IMG/VR virus record: IMGVR_UViG_2663763232_000016 | Source of the DNA: a virus | Taxonomy: Duplodnaviria; Heunggongvirae; Uroviricota; Caudoviricetes | Length of the DNA stretch: 10,031 nt | Direction: 5' to 3' (one strand) | Shown here: in pieces, positions 1,654 through 10,031 of the stretch | Layout: every line of letters begins with the position of its first letter | Position numbering within the stretch: position 1 is the stretch's first letter | Program-made: the position numbers and the translations under genes | The notes under the pieces: generated by a model | What the model saw: the letters and a program-made list of their open reading frames with translations, nothing else | Databases searched by the model: none | Told to the model about the DNA's origin: nothing

Positions 1654-1743
1654 TACCTGCACGATTTTCGTGTACCCACCCCCTCGATTTTCGAGCACCT
1701 ACCTGCACGATTTTCGAGTAGGGGGTAGTCGATTTTCGAGCAC
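1654..1743. repeat. Iteron-like array: four direct repeats of core CGATTTTCG(A/T)G, organised as a tandem ~46-bp duplication, followed by an AT-rich tract
   Basis: Core copies start at 1662, 1685, 1708 and 1730 (spacing 23, 23, 22 bp, about two helical turns). Units 1654-1699 and 1700-1745 are near-identical except the centre (CCCACCCCC versus TAGGGGGTA). AT-rich run AATAATAATAAATAACAAT begins at 1744. Confidence 0.6.
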
Positions 1744-2246
1744 AATAATAATAAATAACAATCTCCATAAAAGAACTGATAAGAAAAGTACCTCCAGGTC
1801 GAGAGCACGGAATGACGGTTGGTCATTCTGTTAGTTTTAATAGTGATGCTTCTGCATCGCTCCGCTCTGCAATGGCTGGTCAGCCACTTCAGATATGTTT
1901 GTGGTAAGAAGCTCACCTTTGCTGACGTGAAACAGCCGCGCCATCTCGTGACCTTCTAACCCTCGTTAACACATCGCTACGCTCTGTGACTCGGGTAACC
2001 CGACAGGCTACGCCAGAGAGCTACGCTCTCACTCTGTGTGGAAGCTGCGAACTTGTTCGCCATATGTGGATCGGAGCACGGCGGAGAGGACTGCTTTGCA
2101 TCTGTCCGGTTCACTCCGGGGCGGCGCGGGTTGTCTAACTGACTTCCTCAGCGCCTCTCTACGGCGTTTAAATGGTGTGGGTAACACGATGGTACTGCTA
2201 TAACGACGAGTCCCCGCAGAACGCGTCACAGAACGATCTAGCACTA

Positions 2247-2317: not shown

Positions 2318-2346
2318 TTGCTATTTACAAACAAATCTGATACAAT
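2318..2346 (+). promoter_or_regulatory. Sigma70-like promoter TTGCTA-17-TACAAT
   Basis: -35 TTGCTA at 2318-2323, 17-nt spacer, -10 TACAAT at 2341-2346; about 145 nt upstream of the ATG at 2492. Confidence 0.45.
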
Positions 2347-2491
2347 AGATTTTAGTAGGGTAATGATTTACCTACGAATCCTCGAATAATTCTGCCGTCA
2401 TCACGACATTCCTTGTCAACCTCACGGCATTACAAAATGGGTTACAAATAGAACCTCCGCGAATAATTCTTTTAACAGAACGGAGAACCCA

Positions 2492-2938
2492 ATGAATAAA
2501 CCAAAATCCCAACGTCTCGACCTGACCACTATGACAGGCGAGCAGATCGCTGATCTCATCCTGAACGGCAAATACACCAAATCAGCTTTGTGGGCCTTCA
2601 TTAGTAGAAACGGCGGGGCAGACGCTGTACATGCTCGACTTCCTCAGATCGCCGTCTGCCTGCAAATCCTGAAGCAGGCGCGGAAGAAAGCGAAGCAGGC
2701 ACGAGTGGTTAAGACGGTGCTGAAGCCTCTGAGCAATAAATATGCTGAGGGTAATTCCTTAACGCAAATCCTGAATCCTGTGTTACAGGGCTACCGCGAG
2801 CTATATAGAGAAAAACTGAATCTGGACCTGACACCAGAACAGGTGATCTTGCTCTTGATCGCCACTGATGGTGTGGAACGTCTGGAATCCTACGGTTACA
2901 CCTGTGCGGGTGACTTCCCGACCGCAACCGCAGTCTAA
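2492..2938 (+). CDS. Hypothetical protein, 148 aa, first gene of the cluster
   Basis: ATG at 2492 preceded by GGAGA at 2482-2486 (5-nt spacing); TAA at 2936-2938. No family recognised. Confidence 0.8.
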   Translation: MNKPKSQRLDLTTMTGEQIADLILNGKYTKSALWAFISRNGGADAVHARLPQIAVCLQILKQARKKAKQARVVKTVLKPLSNKYAEGNSLTQILNPVLQGYRELYREKLNLDLTPEQVILLLIATDGVERLESYGYTCAGDFPTATAV

Positions 2939-3025
2939 CAACACTGAACAAAACCTGAGCCGGTTCGCCTTTGGGCGACCACTGGCGGGAGGTCTTTTGT
3001 ACCTAAAACGAGGAGGACAACTTGA

Positions 3026-3229
3026 ATGAACATCAAATTTCAACAGCACGTTTATCAGGCTCTACTAGCTGAGGCCAAAAGGCAGGACAAGCCCCTGGCA
3101 CGGCTCTGTAATGAAATCTTGGAGACTGCCGCGAACATTTTCGACAACACACCAGACATCAAACCAGCATTAGCCAGCAAGGCGACACTTTACGGAGAAC
3201 AGAATGAGCAAACAGAACCGGGACAGTAA
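3026..3229 (+). CDS. Small DNA-binding protein, ribbon-helix-helix-like (CopG/Arc/ParG-type fold suspected), 67 aa
   Basis: AGGAGG at 3011-3016, 9 nt before ATG 3026. N-terminal short strand (NIKFQQ) followed by two predicted helices (HVYQALLAEAKRQD / PLARLCNEILETA) matches RHH layout. Not confirmed by search. Confidence 0.7.
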   Translation: MNIKFQQHVYQALLAEAKRQDKPLARLCNEILETAANIFDNTPDIKPALASKATLYGEQNEQTEPGQ

Positions 3230-3950
3230 GGATTTTGTAAAACTTGAATACAGCATTCTCGACCTTACCGAGTACAACGGCCTGACCATTAATGGCAACA
3301 TGAAAATTTTGCTATCTCTGGTTTACAGCTATGACAAAACAGGCAGAACTTATTACGAGTCTGTTGGCATGATTGGTAAACGTTGCGGCTGCAAGCCCGA
3401 AGCCGTTCGTAATTTCAGGAACAAGCTTCGTGAAGCGGGAATGATCACTTTTGAGGAAGAGCAGGGGAGAACACACAAAATTTCTCCGGTCGAACTCGAT
3501 CCATCGTTGATGGTTTTTCTTGACGATCATAATTCCACGCAGGTGAGTAATAGAAAAGTGGAAACCGAGGAGAGCGGTAAGAATGAGCAGAAACGTGATG
3601 TGGAATCTTTCGTGGTGGAACCTGCCGCGCCTGTTGCTGGAAAACCAGACGGCCTACCTGTTGTGGATATTCCTGTCGATGCTGATGTACCTGCCAATGA
3701 TGATGCGGTGAACGCTTCTGATAGGTATACCGATGAACAATTAGGCACCAAGCTGAGGCGATGGCGCAATTGGGGACTGGATGAAGAAGCAAAAGCGTTT
3801 TGTCTCTCTCATGGTATCAGCAGCGATGAGGACAGCATGAATCTGTTTATTCAAAATTATCATGTACCCGCACCGGAGTCAGTAGAACAACAGGTTAACG
3901 CCCCAGCAGATGAGCTGCCGCTTGATTATGATGACTCGATCCCTTTCTGA
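3204..3950 (+). CDS. Protein with N-terminal winged-helix-like DNA-binding domain (resembling replisome-organizer / replication-initiator N-domains) and an acidic, low-complexity C-terminal half, 248 aa
   Basis: GGAGA at 3194-3198, 5 nt before ATG 3204; the start overlaps the 3-prime end of the RHH gene by 26 nt. Segment KILLSLVYSYDKTGRTYYESVGMIGKRCGCKPEAVRNFRNKLREAGMITFEE looks like helix-turn-wing. C-terminal half is rich in D/E/P. Confidence 0.8.
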   Translation: MSKQNRDSKDFVKLEYSILDLTEYNGLTINGNMKILLSLVYSYDKTGRTYYESVGMIGKRCGCKPEAVRNFRNKLREAGMITFEEEQGRTHKISPVELDPSLMVFLDDHNSTQVSNRKVETEESGKNEQKRDVESFVVEPAAPVAGKPDGLPVVDIPVDADVPANDDAVNASDRYTDEQLGTKLRRWRNWGLDEEAKAFCLSHGISSDEDSMNLFIQNYHVPAPESVEQQVNAPADELPLDYDDSIPF

Positions 3951-3964
3951 TACTGGAGGAATAA

Positions 3965-4486
3965 TTGTGTGATGTTGCCAACAGCCTGACGGCTGAAACC
4001 CTTACGGTGCGAAGCACTTTACCAGAGGTAAACAAATCCGGTGCTGACGCCCCTGATTTGTCCCGTTTTTACAAGGCCCGCTCTCGTGATACCTCGTTGA
4101 TCGAGACTGCTAAAAAAATGCTCGTTCACGGTTACACCCCAGGCAAAACGGCGCTGCTCCTACGCTTGCCGTATGACCTGGTAAAAGGCCTTTACGATAA
4201 CTCGTGGAATCCTCGCTGTCGCAAGATAAGTAATACCAGTCAGTACGCTACTAAGCGAATGGCCCGAATGTACTACGAATCCGGCGCAATGCTGGCAAAA
4301 ATCTGTGCTGACCTTCAACTGCCTCTATTCACTGTGGTAACGCTGCTCAAGCGTGAAGGAATCACTGAAAAAGAAATGGCATCTCGAATGCCTGTTAGTG
4401 ATGATCCGTTGTTCATTGAGTACCGGAAGACTATTTCACGCAAGCAGGCAGCGCCCCAACGCCGATCACCACGACTGCATTATTAA
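3965..4486 (+). CDS. Hypothetical protein with two HTH-like segments, 173 aa; start codon uncertain
   Basis: ORF runs from TTG 3965 to TAA 4484-4486; GGAGGA at 3955-3960 sits only 4 nt upstream. HTH-like stretches: SLIETAKKMLVHGYTPGKTALLLRL and GAMLAKICADLQLPLFTVVTLLKREG. GYTPGKT is not a canonical Walker A motif. Confidence 0.65.
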   Translation: MCDVANSLTAETLTVRSTLPEVNKSGADAPDLSRFYKARSRDTSLIETAKKMLVHGYTPGKTALLLRLPYDLVKGLYDNSWNPRCRKISNTSQYATKRMARMYYESGAMLAKICADLQLPLFTVVTLLKREGITEKEMASRMPVSDDPLFIEYRKTISRKQAAPQRRSPRLHY

Positions 4487-4600: not shown

Positions 4601-4933
4601 ATGAATAACATTGAAGCAATCCGCGCCAGTATCCGGGAAGCAATGACCGCAGGAACAGACGAACCGGAAGATCTGAACAAATCCGCTGAAGAAGCATTGG
4701 CGGAGGCGGTGCAGAGTTACCTGTCCGCTTCGACTGCAACAGCCAGCGAGCCAGCCCCAAAAAGTGGTAAAACCATCAAGGAAAAAGGGATCGCTCTGTG
4801 CCACCAAGCCCAAGGTTATAGCGCTAATCTGCGTCCGGTAAGTCTCATGATGAAGGCAAGTCTTGATGAGCTAACACCTGAACAACGCGCCGCGCTTGAG
4901 CGTCTGGGTTACGATATCAATCAGGGGGTGTGA
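4601..4933 (+). CDS. Hypothetical protein, about 110 aa from ATG 4601; the in-frame TTG at 4505 would add 32 hydrophobic residues
   Basis: AGGAAA at 4585-4590 lies 10 nt before ATG 4601. The TGA stop at 4931-4933 overlaps the ATG of the next gene (TGATG). Alternative longer ORF from TTG 4505 as given in the ORF track. Confidence 0.6.
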   Translation: MNNIEAIRASIREAMTAGTDEPEDLNKSAEEALAEAVQSYLSASTATASEPAPKSGKTIKEKGIALCHQAQGYSANLRPVSLMMKASLDELTPEQRAALERLGYDINQGV

Positions 4934-7074
4934 TGTCTGGCACAAATAAGATTGTTACCAGCACCGTTAATGAAATCTCGTGGATCACAGACGATGCCTC
5001 ATATCAAAAAGCCAAAAAGAAGATTATCTCGCTTAAGGCTGCTCATGAGAAACCAGCTAAAGCGCTTGAGAAGGCCCAGAAGCGGACCGTCCAGAGTGAA
5101 GGCAAAGCAGCACTAGCCGCAGCGAAAGCCCAGACAGCGAAGCTACGCCAGGCTGAACAATTGTCAAAACAGCAACAGAAACAAGCTCAGATACAAGCCA
5201 AAATGGAACGGGATGCAGTCTCCCACGCTAATAAAATGACCTCATTACAGGCGCGTCAGTTATCCCAGCAGGAACAGGCCGCACGGCAGAATGCCAGACT
5301 AGCAGCGATATCTGACAAGGTGAGACAGGCGAGTCGCTCCCGTGCAATGACCTACAATCCCAACATGCCTGGAGTTCACTCCGATCCATCTCTGGTGGCA
5401 CGTCAAAATGCAGCGATGAACCGTGGTCACGGCGCTGTTGCTGCTGACATCGCAGCCACCAAAAAGGCGATGGCCTTGGAGGAGAAGCGTCAGCGTGAGA
5501 AAGAGGCAGGCCTTAAGCGCGAGGTGACTTATTACAACAGTTTGCGCCGTAGCGCTCTGACTCTGGCAAACGTGAACGGCGCTGACGTTGCAACCCGGTA
5601 CAAAGCCATCAGTGCAGCAAAAGAGGCACTTAAAGCCCAGAAAGAAGAGCGCTATACGGTTGAAGAGACCCGCTTCGAAATGGCTCGTATCACCACCGAA
5701 TTACGCAAGCAGGCTCGTCTGCAACAGCGTATGACCCGTGAGCAGAAAGCCGCAGGTGTTCGTGCTGGTCGTGTACGCACAGAAAGCCGTGGTGGTAGAG
5801 CTGGTCTTGCAGCTGCTGGTGTTATTGGTGGTGCGTCGTTAGTGGGTAGTATGGGCGTTTCTCGTGTCGGTCAGACCCTCCAGGGAAGCCTTGAGCGCTC
5901 TCGCGATGTGAAAAAACTCCAGCAGTACGGGATCAGCAACCTTGAGTTCGCTGCACTTCAGGATCTCTCGATGAGCCGTGTTGGTTACTCACTGAGTGCT
6001 GACAAGCTGGCTGACCTCAACAAGGACACAACCGAAAAGGCCGGGGAATTGTTAAACACCGGCTCTTTCAAACGTAACAAGAAAACTGGACAGGTGAATT
6101 TCAGCGGCGGTGGCGAGTTCGCAGATATCATCAACAATGTGCTGACCTCCACCAACGGTAACCAGAAGGTAGCACAGAAGGTGATCGGAGAACTGCAAAA
6201 GCTGGATTTTCCGACCTTCATCACTTACCTGAAACAGTTGCAGAAAACTTTCAAATGGACGGACAACCAGACCCGGCACCTGGCTGAGGCTGTGAATGAT
6301 GGTTCGGTCTTCCTCGAAGTGTTCAATGATGAGGGGCAGGGACTTATCCAGCGTATGCATCAACTCTCTTCTGAAGGATGGACCCTATCTGATGCGCAGC
6401 AAGCCAACCTCGATAAACTGGCGGCGTTAGGTGCTGAGTACAACCGAGTGCAAACCAGCCTTGCAGATCATTTCTCAGCCTCGTTTGTTGAAGGCCTGGG
6501 GCAGTACGCTGCCAATACTGAAACTCTACGTCAGAAGATGACTGGACTGATCCCAATTTCCGATGCCCTCGGCGTTGCCCTTGGTGAGCTAACCACCAAC
6601 ATTCTCTCCTTCTCTGGTCGAGTCGGTGAAGAACTTAAGAAAGGCGCGACATTGCCGGATGCGGTGTATGCGAGCGTGGTAGATGAATCTGCAAACGGTG
6701 CTGCCGATTGGATTAAGGAAAAGACAGGCTTTGATCCACGTAGCATCGGTCAGACGCTTAAGCAGATTTACCCGTGGCTGGATAGTTCAGCACCGAGCAA
6801 TATTGGCTCAGGCACGGCGTATAACGATCCAGCGCTAGCGTTGAATGTTCCTAGCCTGAACTATCTGACACCCCAGCAACCGACGTTTACGGTTCCGACA
6901 ATTGACAGCATGACGCTGCGACAGCCGATTCCTGTCAGTGTTACCGGGCAAGCGAACATTAATCAGCAGATGGATGTGTTTGTCCATGACGATAAGATCG
7001 CAGGGCTGGTTGATACCAAGATAAGGGAGAACAACCACGCGCAGAATAACCTCATCCTTGGGATTGCAGACTAA
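4933..7074 (+). CDS. Large protein (about 713 aa) with N-terminal A/K/Q-rich coiled-coil region, central glycine-zipper hydrophobic segment and a C-terminal domain of about 400 aa; function unknown (virion structural, scaffold-like or tape-measure-like are possibilities)
   Basis: ATG 4933 coupled to the upstream stop (TGATG) with AGGGGG at 4923-4928; a GTG at 4930 is the ORF-track start. TAA at 7072-7074. Hydrophobic segment GRAGLAAAGVIGGASLVGSMGV. No P-loop or catalytic motif recognised. Confidence 0.9.
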   Translation: MSGTNKIVTSTVNEISWITDDASYQKAKKKIISLKAAHEKPAKALEKAQKRTVQSEGKAALAAAKAQTAKLRQAEQLSKQQQKQAQIQAKMERDAVSHANKMTSLQARQLSQQEQAARQNARLAAISDKVRQASRSRAMTYNPNMPGVHSDPSLVARQNAAMNRGHGAVAADIAATKKAMALEEKRQREKEAGLKREVTYYNSLRRSALTLANVNGADVATRYKAISAAKEALKAQKEERYTVEETRFEMARITTELRKQARLQQRMTREQKAAGVRAGRVRTESRGGRAGLAAAGVIGGASLVGSMGVSRVGQTLQGSLERSRDVKKLQQYGISNLEFAALQDLSMSRVGYSLSADKLADLNKDTTEKAGELLNTGSFKRNKKTGQVNFSGGGEFADIINNVLTSTNGNQKVAQKVIGELQKLDFPTFITYLKQLQKTFKWTDNQTRHLAEAVNDGSVFLEVFNDEGQGLIQRMHQLSSEGWTLSDAQQANLDKLAALGAEYNRVQTSLADHFSASFVEGLGQYAANTETLRQKMTGLIPISDALGVALGELTTNILSFSGRVGEELKKGATLPDAVYASVVDESANGAADWIKEKTGFDPRSIGQTLKQIYPWLDSSAPSNIGSGTAYNDPALALNVPSLNYLTPQQPTFTVPTIDSMTLRQPIPVSVTGQANINQQMDVFVHDDKIAGLVDTKIRENNHAQNNLILGIAD

Positions 7075-7158
7075 AATCATCGTTCCGTCGAAAATGGCGC
7101 AGCAAATTGGCCCACACGAGAGAGGGCCGTTGAATTCGCCATGTTATTGTTTTTGTTG

Positions 7159-7187
7159 TTGCAAATGATAATCATTCGTGTTAAAAT
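7159..7187 (+). promoter_or_regulatory. Strong sigma70-like promoter TTGCAA-17-TAAAAT with extended -10 TG
   Basis: -35 TTGCAA at 7159-7164, 17-nt spacer, TG at 7179-7180, -10 TAAAAT at 7182-7187, set in an AT-rich stretch; predicted start near 7195. Confidence 0.4.
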
Positions 7188-7243
7188 AATATACAAGGTG
7201 AATTACAACAGCCAAATGTTTTCCCTTCTCCTTAGGAATCAAA

Positions 7244-7270
7244 GTGCGCTTTTCCCAGAGCGCCTTTTCT
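7244..7270 (+). terminator. Weak intrinsic-terminator-like hairpin about 50-75 nt downstream of the 7159-7187 promoter
   Basis: GCGCT (7246-7250) pairs with AGCGC (7259-7263) around an 8-nt loop, followed by CTTTTCT (7264-7270). Short stem, so low confidence. Confidence 0.3.
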
Positions 7271-7532
7271 CATACAGCCAATATTCGCACCCTCTCACGG
7301 TAAGGTTAGGCCATTGCCGCTGGCTGTATCAGAAAAGATTTTCTCCGACCTTGGATCGGGGATTTGCCAAAGCCTTTCATCCTCGGAAGGCCGTCTTGCC
7401 AGACGAAAACTGGCATTGAGTGCGGCAGCGAAGATATGAGGTCTCCCGCTGCTGTGCTCCCTCATTCCTGAAGCGTGACCCGCCGATCATGCTTTCCAAA
7501 TCTCTCCATCAGAAAATACCATCGTGAAGCTA

Positions 7533-7552
7533 TTAGCAACGCATGTTGCTAA
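7533..7552. repeat. 20-bp palindrome TTAGCAAC-GCAT-GTTGCTAA (candidate operator or RNA hairpin)
   Basis: Perfect 8-bp inverted arms with a 4-bp spacer, read directly from the sequence; sits between the promoter at 7159 and the terminators at 7595-7678. Confidence 0.5.
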
Positions 7553-7594
7553 CCCGTAAACGGGTGAATTTCATCATCTCCGATGATCTACCAA

Positions 7595-7629
7595 CCGGGG
7601 CAGGCGTTTTCCTGCCTCCGGCTCTTTTT
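7595..7629 (+). terminator. Rho-independent terminator (about 10-bp stem with one bulge, then CTCTTTTT)
   Basis: CCGGGGCAGG (7595-7604) pairs with CCTGCC-T-CCGG (7611-7621) around loop CGTTTT; T-run at 7625-7629. Confidence 0.5.
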
Positions 7630-7654
7630 CTGTTGGGAATACAAATAAAAGAAT

Positions 7655-7678
7655 GCCGTCCGATGGACGGTATTTTTT
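7655..7678 (+). terminator. Rho-independent terminator (GC-rich stem CCGTCC/GGACGG followed by TATTTTTT)
   Basis: Stem 7656-7661 pairs with 7665-7670 around a 3-nt loop; T-run at 7673-7678; 40 nt upstream of the capsid-pair start. Confidence 0.6.
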
Positions 7679-7735
7679 CAACACAACCCGGCATATTCGC
7701 CGGATTATAAAAATTGCATGGAGATACAACAAAAT

Positions 7736-8080
7736 ATGGCATTCGAACATGAAAGCAAAACCCCACAGGATGTATTGGTTTATACCGATAGCCCGATCTT
7801 TCATAAGCGCACCGTGATCTTTGATCTGGCTGCTGATGTGACTTGTGGTGATGTGATTAACCCGACCACTGGCGCGGCATACGTTGCAGCCGATGCTGAT
7901 AACTGTGCTGTAGCTCTGCAAAATCAAATCGCTGGTGATGCCCGTAGCCTGGTCATTTCAGACCGTGGCTGTGTGTTCAATCCATCTGGTCTGGTTGTAG
8001 CGGCTGCTGCAAAAGATGCTGCTTACGCTGCCCTTGTTAAGCAAGGCAACCGCATTGCTGACGCAAACACTGCAATCTAA
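7736..8080 (+). CDS. Putative head decoration protein (lambda gpD-like size and composition), about 114 aa; alternative start ATG 7718
   Basis: ORF from ATG 7718 to TAA 8078-8080; the second ATG at 7736 has GGAGA at 7720-7724 (11-nt spacing) whereas 7718 has no Shine-Dalgarno. Small Ala/Gly-rich protein directly upstream of a capsid-sized gene; segment TTGAAYVAADADNCA resembles lambda D TDGAAVGILAVAADQ. Not confirmed by search. Confidence 0.7.
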   Translation: MAFEHESKTPQDVLVYTDSPIFHKRTVIFDLAADVTCGDVINPTTGAAYVAADADNCAVALQNQIAGDARSLVISDRGCVFNPSGLVVAAAAKDAAYAALVKQGNRIADANTAI

Positions 8081-8098
8081 TCAAGGAGTGATAACAAT

Positions 8099-9115
8099 AT
8101 GAAATTAAGTGATTTTACTAACCTTTCCGGTCAGTTTGTGAAGCCAAGCGGCGAGGGGTTCCTTCTGTCCAGCCTGGGGATCTTTACCAGCCGTCCAAGT
8201 GATACGCAAATCATCGCGCTCGACACACTGGAAGATGTGCAGCGTGAAGTGACCAAATCTGTTGCCCGTTATGGTTCTGAAATGTCCGGTCTAAACTTCC
8301 CTAAAGCGGCTAACGTGACTGTTCAGGCTCCACTGCATGTCTACAGCTCAACCATCACCAGCCAGGATTGGCAGGGGAAACGTCAGCCGGGAACAAATCG
8401 CCAGATGACCGCTGAAGATGTAGTTGCTAATCATACCCTGAAGCACTACCTGCAAACCCGCCGTGATGTTGAATATGCCATGGCGCAGAGCCTGCTTCAC
8501 AATACTGTAGAGGCGACACACCTTCGTGAAGGTCCTGATCTGAACTGGCAAACCTTCTGGGGTATTAACCAGCCGTCTGCTGTGGTGAAAACTGGCATCA
8601 GTGCCAACGTTATTACTGAGATGCAGAACGCTGTCACGCTGCTGAAGAAAAATCTGGGTGGCTGGTCTTCCAGCATCAAGCAGGTTTATCTGCTAGCGAG
8701 TCCGAGTCTTTTCACCGCCATTCAAGGCAACCCAACCGCATATCAGGCGGCTCTGTTTGGTGCTACGTCCCGTGACATCATTTTCCCTGACACTTTGGGC
8801 GCATATGATCGATACAACATCGGGCGCGTAACTGTAGTTCAGGTTGACGATCCGCTATACGGCATTGCAGATGGTGAAGGCTACATGCTGGCGACGTTCT
8901 CCAATGTTGTTGAAGGCGACCTTTCACCTTATATGACTTACCAGACTCCGGCGAGCCGTCATGCTGACGTTGCTAATGGTCCGGTTTATCCGTCTTACCA
9001 TTACGTTCTGCGTGATAAGTTCATGAATTATGAGGTGGTCAGCGAGCTATCACAAATTCAGATCCCAATGCGTCCAGACTTCGTTTTGAAAATTACGATG
9101 GATGACGCGGCGTAA
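8099..9115 (+). CDS. Putative major capsid protein (lambda gpE-like / HK97-fold class suggested by size and synteny), 338 aa
   Basis: AAGGAG at 8083-8088, 10 nt before ATG 8099; TAA at 9113-9115. Length close to lambda gpE (341 aa), directly downstream of the decoration-like gene, about 50 percent GC. Family call is from context and size, not from detectable identity to lambda E. Confidence 0.85.
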   Translation: MKLSDFTNLSGQFVKPSGEGFLLSSLGIFTSRPSDTQIIALDTLEDVQREVTKSVARYGSEMSGLNFPKAANVTVQAPLHVYSSTITSQDWQGKRQPGTNRQMTAEDVVANHTLKHYLQTRRDVEYAMAQSLLHNTVEATHLREGPDLNWQTFWGINQPSAVVKTGISANVITEMQNAVTLLKKNLGGWSSSIKQVYLLASPSLFTAIQGNPTAYQAALFGATSRDIIFPDTLGAYDRYNIGRVTVVQVDDPLYGIADGEGYMLATFSNVVEGDLSPYMTYQTPASRHADVANGPVYPSYHYVLRDKFMNYEVVSELSQIQIPMRPDFVLKITMDDAA

Positions 9116-9391: not shown

Positions 9392-9416
9392 AGCCGGGTT
9401 AATCCCGGCTTTTTTT
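9392..9416. terminator. Bidirectional rho-independent terminator shared by the capsid transcription unit and the convergent minus-strand gene
   Basis: Perfect 7-bp stem AGCCGGG / CCCGGCT around loop TTAAT, flanked by an A-run upstream and TTTTTTT at 9410-9416. The stop codon of the minus-strand gene lies in the loop. Confidence 0.75.
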
Positions 9417-10031
9417 ATGTACTTTGCTGAAGTCAAAAAGATTGTCAAATTTAATGATATCTAATCCAGAGATAGCGTGATTAACATCTTTCATCATTGC
9501 GCCATGTTCATCATAAGCGTTACGTATTGCCATGAATTCTTCTGGTGTTATCTGTGCTTTAAGCAAAGCCTGCATGATGAGAGTCATCAGTTTTGAGATG
9601 GCTATTTGCGTATTACCAGAAGATCGAAGAAGGGCGTTGAATGGCTCCCAGGAAACCTTTTTAATCAGAACATTATAGTGACTTAACTTGATGAAAGAGC
9701 TACCAATGCGAAAGGTATTTTCCGTCATATCTTTCAAGGATTCTTGAATATGATAATAGCTTTCTTCGTCGGCTTTTTGTCCTGATTTCGCCAGTGTGTC
9801 GAGAAAAGTCATAATGCGGTTTAAGTCAAAGCGCATACGATTGTAACGGCTTCTGGTGCTATCAATTTCTTCTTTAAGAGCGATTGCTGAATCAATTGCC
9901 CGCTCCATTTTTCTCGTCTTCACAATCTCCTGAAGTTTAACCCCTCCGAAGATGACGCCGCCAACCACACTCAACGCTGTTACAGCATTCGAAGCGATAG
10001 AGATAATGTTATCCCATGCTTGTAAATCCAT
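9399..10031 (-). CDS. Membrane-anchored protein (N-terminal transmembrane helix plus helical soluble domain), at least 210 aa; possible moron / superinfection-exclusion or abortive-infection candidate; may extend beyond the window
   Basis: ORF ends at TAA (complement of 9399-9401); its ATG is the last three bases of the window, so the true start may lie outside. Hydrophobic segment IISIASNAVTALSVVGGVIFGGV near the N-terminus. Local GC is about 34 percent in a hand-counted 100-nt sample versus about 50 percent in the capsid gene. Confidence 0.8.
   Translation of the reverse strand: MDLQAWDNIISIASNAVTALSVVGGVIFGGVKLQEIVKTRKMERAIDSAIALKEEIDSTRSRYNRMRFDLNRIMTFLDTLAKSGQKADEESYYHIQESLKDMTENTFRIGSSFIKLSHYNVLIKKVSWEPFNALLRSSGNTQIAISKLMTLIMQALLKAQITPEEFMAIRNAYDEHGAMMKDVNHAISGLDIIKFDNLFDFSKVHKKSRD

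Follow-up and report, generated by a model that had tools for sequence, protein, structure and literature searches.

Background

In pMV158, the genes copG and repB form a repressor-rep cassette in which CopG limits the dosage of the RepB initiator. CopG is a ribbon-helix-helix (RHH) protein, as is ORF56 of pRN1. In pRN1, orf56 and orf904 lie in one operon (PMC4234260). In this report, we analyze a gene pair whose layout resembles that of these cassettes. The pair lies in a 10,031-nucleotide stretch of DNA from a virus of the Caudoviricetes (IMG/VR record IMGVR_UViG_2663763232_000016), which we call the window. It consists of a gene for a 67-amino-acid (aa) RHH-like protein and an overlapping gene, here called rep, for a 248-aa protein that resembles replication initiators. 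An earlier reading made from the letters of the window (the sequence-only reading) had drawn attention to this pair.

Two further systems bear on the 248-aa protein. The TrfA initiator of RK2 has a beta-clamp motif that is required for replisome assembly at oriV (PMC4980987). The acidic tip of SSB, formed by its last nine residues, binds on its own to PriA, the chi subunit of Pol III, RecO and PriC; its terminal Pro-Phe enters a hydrophobic pocket of RecO, as it does for ExoI, and the tip-binding sites of the partners are generally positively charged (PMC7145534). Within SSB, the tip also binds back onto the DNA-binding domain and so competes with the partners (PMC7145534).

We consider it probable, with real room for doubt, that the pair forms the regulator-plus-initiator core of the replication module of an integrative element of ~13.4 kb that carries capsid genes, and that the initiator is built from exchangeable modules. 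A small RHH regulator combined with an iteron initiator is a well-known design, and the basic logic of such a module is ordinary. The features worth following are an apparent copy of the SSB tip on an initiator and a six-way series of initiator and iteron specificities.

Results and discussion

Two overlapping genes under purifying selection

The two genes, taken from a list of open reading frames (ORFs), are as follows. Unless a locus is named, all coordinates are those of the window.

3026..3229, plus strand: 67-aa ORF, ATG start, ribbon-helix-helix-like
3204..3950, plus strand: 248-aa ORF (rep), ATG start, replication-initiator-like

The ORFs share 26 nt (3204-3229), exactly as the sequence-only reading had placed them. 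Each gene has a Shine-Dalgarno sequence that can be read directly: GAGGAGG at 3010-3016, 9 nt ahead of the ATG of the 67-aa gene, and GGAG at 3194-3197, 6 nt ahead of the ATG of rep and within the tail codons of the 67-aa gene. RefSeq annotates both genes in an identical copy of the locus in E. coli TC24. Codon changes confirm that both are under purifying selection and are not chance ORFs. Between the core of the 67-aa protein and its Edwardsiella homologue, 20 changes are synonymous and 4 nonsynonymous, versus 1/21 and 0/21 in the other two frames. Over the first 100 codons of rep, comparison with the Yersinia homologue gives 30 synonymous and 38 nonsynonymous changes, versus 6/62 and 4/63 in the other frames.

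In all diverged relatives examined but one (locus L012, from Yersinia), a small ORF lies directly upstream of rep in one gene string and overlaps its start by 20-35 nt. The overlap contains the downstream Shine-Dalgarno sequence in every variant, and it is because of this coding constraint that the otherwise variable tail of the 67-aa protein retains a conserved 'NGE/NGD'. The sequence-only reading had described the two genes as translationally coupled. The overlap stands, but coupling based on RNA structure was rejected: the RNA around the rep start is less structured than shuffled sequence (z +0.98), and rep has its own accessible Shine-Dalgarno sequence.

A candidate origin that is exchanged together with the N-domain

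The region upstream of the pair contains the following elements of a candidate origin.

1661..1743, plus strand: iteron array, four direct copies of CGATTTTCGAG (core CGATTTTCG(A/T)G); candidate binding site of the 248-aa protein
1744..1790, no strand assigned: AT-rich stretch directly after the iterons, ~80% A+T over 45 nt; candidate DNA-unwinding region
1807..1831, plus strand: terminator-like hairpin followed by a T-rich tail; marks the right-hand limit of the origin region

The iterons are spaced 23/23/22 bp from start to start, which is about two helical turns. Three exact copies and one copy with a single mismatch lie within 79 bp, and the only other match in the window has two mismatches. 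The array is located ~1.5 kb upstream of rep, and no copy lies inside the rep gene. In 11/11 loci compared, the array gives way to an AT-rich stretch (61-71% A+T over 130 nt). Within the AT-rich stretch of the window, oriC-type 13-mers were sought and judged not enriched (46 found versus 33.9±5.9 expected). A hairpin equivalent to that at 1807-1831 is present in every variant (L003, L004, L006, L007, L010, L013 and L014), with compensatory changes in its arms (GAATGAC/GTCATTC, GTGAAC/GTTCAC, TTGAAC/GTTCAA and ATAGAC/GTCTAT). This terminator-like structure suggests a transcript that runs through the origin. A promoter-like site lies near the repeats, at 1442-1469.

The N-terminal domain (N-domain) of the 248-aa protein occurs in six types among the relatives, each with its own direct-repeat array in the equivalent upstream region:

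Type A (MSKQNRDS...): the window, L001 and L002 (E. coli); YGATTTTCGAG-type repeats, 3-4 copies, 22-24 bp
Type A: L011 (Edwardsiella) and L012 (Yersinia); same core and spacing as in the window, the L011 copies being degenerate
Type B (DUF6945): L003 and L013; TCATCGGTAAYG
Type C: L004 and L014; two 32-34-nt CACAGWGAACCCAG.GTGGGGTCT repeats, 44 bp apart
Type D: L006; four CCATTGGTAAAGA repeats, 23-24 bp
Type E: L007; three CCACTGWAGAAAGGTAAGT repeats
Type F: L010; two AACCATGYCGGAATTYCAG repeats

L001 is the identical E. coli copy and L002 is 90% identical; L011 and L012 are otherwise unrelated in DNA. L014 has a serine recombinase in place of the tyrosine integrase. Three of the types are found again in independent loci (A in Yersinia and Edwardsiella, B in L013, C in L014). 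In L007, the origin block and the N-domain have both been replaced, and the intervening 1.36 kb, which holds the promoter region, an upstream gene named orf148, the spacer that follows it and the small gene, is kept at 78% identity. Because the origin block and the N-domain are replaced together, we assign the 248-aa protein as an iteron-binding initiator; this is the main basis of the assignment. The co-variation suggests, indirectly, that the N-domain recognizes the direct repeats of its own origin.

A minus-strand gene for a 123-aa protein beside the iterons was considered as a specificity factor and rejected, being 98% identical across three iteron types and absent from the window. The Yersinia locus L012 combines a type A initiator with three type A iterons and has neither an intact RHH ORF nor capsid genes. 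About 110 nt to the left of its iterons are eight tandem copies of TGGTGACT; together, these features occupy L012 4274-4345 and 4452-4508.

Domains of the 248-aa protein and its similarity to initiators

An AlphaFold2 model of the 248-aa protein, computed on a 66-sequence alignment, divides it into the following parts.

3249..3518, plus strand: winged-helix N-domain, residues 16-105; exchangeable, type matching the iteron type
3522..3713, plus strand: disordered, acidic, proline-rich linker, residues 107-170
3714..3857, plus strand: small helical C-domain of three to four short helices, residues 171-218
3921..3947, plus strand: C-terminal tip LDYDDSIPF, resembling the SSB tip MDFDDDIPF

In the modelled N-domain, helices at residues 31-45, 54-61 and 65-77 and strands at 50-52, 81-86 and 90-95 follow one another in the order helix, strand, helix, helix, strand, strand. 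Residues 224-248 are predicted to be a disordered tail, and residues 107-248 include 31 D+E versus 12 K+R. The winged-helix-like N-terminus and long acidic tail that the sequence-only reading had ascribed to this protein are thus both found.

The initiator family is a mosaic: the N-domains are exchangeable, the linker is shared, and the C-terminus is of at least six kinds. The linker DNA (3555-3704) is the best-conserved rep segment across variants, at 89-96% identity, and its few changes are mostly nonsynonymous (7 versus 1). Such a pattern would be expected if the linker DNA served as an anchor for recombination between the N- and C-terminal modules, or if the DNA itself were constrained.

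Profile and fold comparisons point to replication initiators. PHROG initiator families (DnaD-like loader, O-like and 'replication initiation protein') match the window protein at E 5.6e-6 to 6e-4, the O-like and DnaD-like ones at 5.6e-6 to 3e-4, and PHROG replication-initiator families match 44-48/66 family members, with a best E of 2.5e-10. Pfam gives a sub-threshold HTH_36 match and DnaD_N at E 0.17, and relatives carry DUF6945 or HTH_36 at the equivalent place. In a Foldseek search of the Protein Data Bank (PDB), the top ranks are 4pql, 4pt7 and 5kbj, deposited as an initiator N-domain or a Rep-DNA complex, at E 6e-3 to 2e-2 with a root-mean-square deviation of ~6 Å over ~110 columns. We take 4pql and 4pt7 to be staphylococcal plasmid RepA proteins. 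The same list contains 4ro3, which a search with the family profile also found (E 4e-5), and the DnaD N-domain, amid many MarR-type winged helices. Among predicted viral structures (BFVD), 34 matches have E<=1e-3, and those with names are mostly 'Replication initiator protein' or 'RepA-like'. 'GpO N-terminal' and 'Replisome organizer' fall just under this cut-off, and the other matches are generic helix-turn-helix or uncharacterized proteins. No nuclease family matches the 248-aa protein, the model of which is a winged helix plus disorder, and neither the model nor the family searches contain an OB fold or an SSB family. PDB sequence searches with the single whole proteins gave nothing useful.

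An SSB-like C-terminal tip

The 248-aa protein ends in ...NAPADELPLDYDDSIPF. When the last 25 residues were compared with PDB chain sequences, only two entries were found, and both are SSB, aligned C-terminus to C-terminus (NAPADELPLDYDDSIPF versus AAPSNEPPMDFDDDIPF). The alignment to SSB is confined to the last ~17-21 residues. Between LDYDDSIPF and the MDFDDDIPF of E. coli SSB, 6/9 residues are identical and 3 are conservative changes. The tip stands at the extreme C-terminus on a tether that, like the linker of SSB, is disordered according to the AlphaFold2 prediction.

Of 101 full-length clusters of the family, 45 end in an acidic xP[F/Y] tip, which is found on several unrelated C-terminal sequences. 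The ends seen in the family include IPF, APF and IPY tips, DLLYDL, GGIIV and VALM. A blastn search of the tail-coding DNA against E. coli genomes gave no ssb match, so that acquisition of the tip by capture of a gene fragment is not supported. A literature search for SSB-tip mimics on initiators yielded nothing specific.

From the resemblance of the tip we infer that the 248-aa protein may borrow SSB partners (PriA and chi) to build a replisome. As a tentative and rather doubtful extension, the island may start replication independently of DnaA with an initiator that impersonates SSB, a tip parked at the origin capturing the PriA primosome, the chi subunit of Pol III and PriC.

The 67-aa protein is a probable RHH protein

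The 67-aa family is very small: clustering at 90% identity gives 12 clusters, and a profile compared with 1.84 billion representative proteins found only 10 close relatives. Every member with a named source comes from the Enterobacteriaceae or a related genus (Edwardsiella). Residues 1-41 form a nearly invariant folded core, and the tail (42-67) is disordered and variable.

Pfam and NCBIfam give no match for the 67-aa protein itself. Its positional equivalents in other variants resemble textbook RHH proteins (MINLRFTPELFTIIRANAAAEGIGVG..., ...EAKRRGTTVPNLAREVLE...), and that of L004 matches the Pfam NikA-like RHH model (E 9e-4). We aligned the 67-aa family with hhalign to eight reference RHH proteins whose sequences had been entered by hand (CopG, Arc, Mnt, omega, ParG, NikR, RelB and ParD). 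The result was a 91% probability, E 1e-6 and a score of 31.9, in register over the strand, helix A, the loop and helix B. Controls scored 8.1±1.9 (maximum 15.8) for 100 column-shuffled templates and 9.5 for a reversed template. In a Foldseek search with the 67-aa model, 7/8 best matches are RHH proteins (CdbA, MatP, MazE-mt9 and PutA among them), all matches having E 2-10; the exception is a 20-column match to TruB tied at rank 8. The 67-aa protein is therefore a probable RHH protein on the evidence of hhalign, the L004 Pfam match and Foldseek, in keeping with what had been suggested from sequence.

Expression region and the partner of the RHH protein

The region that precedes the pair contains the following features.

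2318..2351, plus strand: sigma-70-like promoter candidates, TTGCTA-17-TACAAT with TG; a consensus match only
2939..3025, plus strand: 87-nt spacer separating orf148 from the RHH gene; contains a stable hairpin and GAGGAGG (3010-3016)

A conserved TTGACAAAGA motif is located at 2247. Four loci share the spacer at ~100% identity, although the coding DNA on either side of it has only ~78-90% identity. Its hairpin consists of 6 bp, a bulge and 5 bp (dG -28.2 kcal/mol, z -2.64), and a second spacer type has the same hairpin shape in a different sequence, with a compensatory change. The spacer may be an attenuator or a processing signal.

Variants recombine these parts. L007 combines the RHH type of the window with another N-domain and another origin, L010 has the promoter, orf148 and spacer of the window but another RHH protein, and one RHH type can be found behind either of two spacer types. 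Since the RHH type is exchanged independently of the N-domain and the iterons, the RHH protein is neither an iteron binder nor an N-domain-specific partner. Binding of the RHH protein to the iteron array, which the sequence-only reading had offered for testing, is accordingly unlikely. The spacer hairpin and the iterons were both rejected as its operator, as the RHH type co-varies with neither. No iteron copy is found near the promoter region, so the initiator is unlikely to repress itself there, and another factor must control the expression of rep.

Proposed mechanism and alternatives

We propose that the winged helix of the 248-aa protein binds the four direct repeats at 1661-1743, and that the adjacent AT-rich DNA would be the place of duplex opening. 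Searches of Pfam, PHROG and NCBIfam detected no helicase, primase, polymerase or loader family in the island. With no helicase, primase or loader recognizable in the element, the C-terminal part would have to recruit the host replisome. The tip LDYDDSIPF, on its acidic disordered tether, is probably the recruiting device and could dock into the SSB-tip pockets of proteins such as PriA, chi or PriC. A dimer of the 67-aa RHH protein, which would be encoded on the initiator transcript immediately before the initiator itself, would bind DNA and would most likely repress its own transcript, limiting initiator dosage as CopG does for RepB in pMV158. The role of the RHH protein is the weakest step of this proposal.

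Several results weigh against the proposal. For the initiator, similarity to known initiators is remote throughout: Phage_rep_O and RepA_N of Pfam do not match the 248-aa protein, nor does any NCBIfam model, and MarR-type regulators fill much of the fold list. A tblastn search with the 248-aa protein found no match in phage and plasmid collections, and autonomous replication has never been observed for the family. For the tip, the likeness to SSB amounts to nine residues with a peptide E of 0.17-0.35, about half of the family has no SSB-like tip, and the tail-coding DNA does not match ssb. For the small protein, the AlphaFold monomer has helices at 3-19 and 24-40 and no strand, with helix where the RHH strand is due; to this are added the Foldseek E values and the hand-entered reference set. 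Finally, no RHH operator was found in the comparison of variants, in which the RHH type tracks no promoter type, spacer hairpin or iterons, and the Yersinia relative has an initiator with no RHH gene.

With these points in mind, the 248-aa protein might instead be a transcription factor, such as an island repressor or late-gene activator, with the repeats as its operators and the RHH protein as a co-regulator. MarR, ArsR, CodY and Lrp-type regulators are indeed numerous among the fold and profile matches, the repeats adjoin the terminator-like hairpin and the promoter-like site at 1442-1469, and plasmid and phage records contain no member of the family. However, the matching sequence profiles are those of replication-initiator families (44-48/66 members), the top PDB folds and most named BFVD matches are initiators, and three to four repeats of ~22-24 bp in the same orientation followed by AT-rich DNA have the architecture of an origin. 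The element also has no other candidate for replication, and we regard a purely transcriptional role as improbable. The sequence-only reading had left open a novel regulator-plus-effector or an initiator module. The same PHROG matches and named folds, together with the iteron co-variation, argue for the latter and not for an effector. A toxin-antitoxin or defence-type pair, with an RHH antitoxin and a novel toxic partner, is very improbable. A small RHH gene first and overlapping a larger partner is the order of many type II systems, and satellites often carry defence cargo, including DarT/NADAR in a relative. Yet Pfam, NCBIfam and PADLOC give no toxin fold or family for the partner, which was correctly said at the outset to be neither a recognizable toxin nor a partition ATPase. 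It is a DNA-binding winged helix with disordered acidic regions, and its N-domain co-varies with a DNA repeat array. Moreover, the RHH type is exchanged independently of that domain, unlike in cognate antitoxin-toxin pairs, and the pair belongs to the conserved core of the element, not to its cargo slots.

Other alternatives concern single parts of the replication module. The tip might recruit nothing, acting either as a decoy that ties up proteins of the host or of a helper phage that interact with SSB, or as an autoinhibitory, DNA-mimicking tail that folds back onto its own winged helix. The acidic tip of SSB does bind back to its DNA-binding domain (PMC7145534), residues 107-248 are strongly acidic (31 D+E versus 12 K+R), and interference with helpers is common among satellites. 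On the other hand, a protein that binds an origin sequence-specifically would make a poor bulk decoy, the tip recurs on several unrelated C-terminal modules as expected of a docking peptide, and TrfA is a precedent for recruitment through a motif for a host hub (PMC4980987). None of these counter-points is decisive, and we consider a tip that recruits nothing unlikely. The 67-aa protein, in turn, might not be an autorepressor but an accessory factor of the origin or of partition, might act in excision, or might bind the conserved linker of the initiator. This would agree with the failure to identify an operator, with an RHH type that tracks neither promoter nor spacer type, and with the linker being the sole initiator segment common to all variants. 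Its position directly upstream of rep in one transcription unit nevertheless matches repressor-rep cassettes (pMV158, and pRN1 orf56/orf904, PMC4234260), there is neither a partition ATPase nor centromere repeats, and the RHH type is independent of the iterons. We would not expect such a role, and we retain the proposal of an autorepressor paired with an iteron initiator.

The element that carries the pair

Comparison with the E. coli copy establishes that the window is the core of an integrative island of 13.4 kb. In E. coli TC24 the identical copy (L001 11797-25262) begins with a tyrosine integrase and is flanked by a duplicated TPP riboswitch, which is the thiM leader. Relatives are inserted at tRNA-Gly, tRNA-Thr or elsewhere and have other integrases or serine recombinases. 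The conserved core begins with an ORF-poor region of ~2 kb, followed by orf148, the small gene, the 248-aa gene, orf173 and a gene of ~110-140 aa. It continues with a tape-measure-like protein of ~715 aa, a lambda-D-like decoration protein, a lambda-E-like major capsid protein and a gene of ~70 aa. In the window, the structural genes (lambda-E-like major capsid, lambda-D-like decoration and 714-aa tape-measure-like) occupy 4930-9115. No portal, protease or terminase is recognizable in the island. The genes on either side of the pair are as follows.

2492..2938, plus strand: orf148, the first gene of the orf148-RHH-rep string
3965..4486, plus strand: orf173, 173 aa, directly downstream of rep

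The orf148 gene (142-148 aa) is kept in every capsid-gene-carrying variant examined; none was called in Edwardsiella L011 or Yersinia L012. The orf173 product has no family match in Pfam, PHROG or NCBIfam. Among its homologues (L002-L014), one type accompanies all seven initiators that end in IPF, and the other type accompanies two non-IPF initiators. That the orf173 type tracks the C-terminal type of the initiator could reflect a functional pairing or plain linkage of adjacent DNA.

Some version of the island is present in ~51/5,426 complete E. coli genomes. A scan of species-representative genomes found two loci only. Several Logan contigs with relatives are ~13.0-13.8 kb in length, and one ends in a 26-nt att/tRNA-derived repeat. 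Circular contigs of this size were considered as a sign of an episome, and the idea was dropped. A megablast search of the window against phage and plasmid collections matched only a 58-nt IS66 end, in plasmids. The island is probably a capsid-encoding phage satellite. Literature searches on DUF6945 and on this type of island yielded nothing specific, and we found no description there of an Enterobacteriaceae family of ~13-kb islands that encode capsids.

Cargo differs between copies at the variable island ends (L016 10983-12324, L003 6020-6655 and 17089-17667, and L007 1061-3304) and includes DarT with NADAR, DUF4145, a GNAT acetyltransferase, and Dam with HNH. The end of the window itself contains a 210-aa ORF (9399-10031, minus strand) with no clear family in Pfam or PADLOC. 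At the opposite end, positions 1-58 match, at 100% identity, the terminus of an IS66-family element known from Klebsiella plasmids. Identical E. coli copies match only from position 54, so in the source of the window an IS66 element seems to have inserted into the upstream 'OB-fold protein' gene.

Between 360 and 2490, ~2.1 kb of the window has no annotated or convincing gene. Two blocks within it, 649-1282 and 1830-1901, are kept in all island variants, whatever the initiator or iteron type. An Rfam search of the window at E<=1 returned chance-level matches only. Possibilities for this gene-poor region include a packaging site, a noncoding RNA or a helper-response element.

Implications

The analysis assigns a probable function to a family that has so far been annotated as 'hypothetical' or 'DUF6945/helix-turn-helix domain-containing', and it locates a candidate origin for a ~13-kb capsid-encoding island family of Enterobacteriaceae. 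The six matched sets of initiator and iterons provide a specificity series for the reading of repeats by winged helices. If functional, the copy of the SSB tip would be a new route for a mobile element into the host replication hub, as well as a handle on the host factor on which the island depends. If the initiator does impersonate SSB, the alternative C-termini of the family would be interchangeable plugs for different host or helper partners.

Comparison with known systems

The locus shares with pMV158 copG-repB and pRN1 orf56-orf904 a very small RHH gene that is immediately upstream of, and co-transcribed with, the initiator gene. RepB of pMV158 is a rolling-circle HUH nuclease and ORF904 of pRN1 is a primase-helicase, whereas the 248-aa protein appears to be a nonenzymatic winged-helix iteron binder. 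The similarity of the 67-aa protein to CopG is at the level of profiles only, and repression is proposed here by analogy. Homology to a known initiator accompanied by its known RHH co-factor, which the sequence-only reading had named as an outcome that would refute it, was found only in part: initiator homology is present but remote, and an RHH gene upstream of rep is a layout shared with CopG-RepB and orf56/orf904 by analogy, not by homology.

The 'replisome organizer' proteins of the lambda O-type or DnaD-like kind (PHROG 391, 678, 345 and 186) have an N-terminal winged helix that reads direct repeats of the origin, then a flexible linker, and an exchangeable C-terminal part that deals with host or loader proteins, with modules that shuffle among relatives. 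In all of this the 248-aa protein would resemble them. They differ in that the lambda-type origin lies inside the initiator gene, whereas the candidate origin here is ~1.5 kb upstream of it; in addition, no P-like loader is recognizable nearby, Phage_rep_O does not match, and an SSB-like tip is present. The staphylococcal RepA_N-type initiators (4pql, 4pt7 and 5kbj) are the best structural matches to the N-domain and have a DnaD-like winged helix that binds iterons. Work on pSK41 RepA is said to have found that a separate C-domain contacts host replication proteins. These initiators belong to different hosts and have their iterons inside the rep gene, and the 248-aa protein lacks a RepA_N match in Pfam.

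The tip shares with the SSB C-terminus (MDFDDDIPF) its extreme C-terminal position, a disordered tether, an acidic run and a terminal I-P-F. SSB is a tetrameric OB fold, whereas the tip here is attached to a winged helix predicted to bind specific double-stranded sequences, and the DNA has no similarity to ssb. TrfA of RK2 has two winged-helix domains and a different family origin, and the hub that it contacts is the beta clamp, through a motif of the QL[S/D]LF type; here, the hub would be the partners of SSB and the motif an acidic IPF. In both cases, an iteron initiator has, or here would have, a short motif directed to a host hub, which for the plasmid initiator TrfA is needed for replisome assembly at the origin (PMC4980987).

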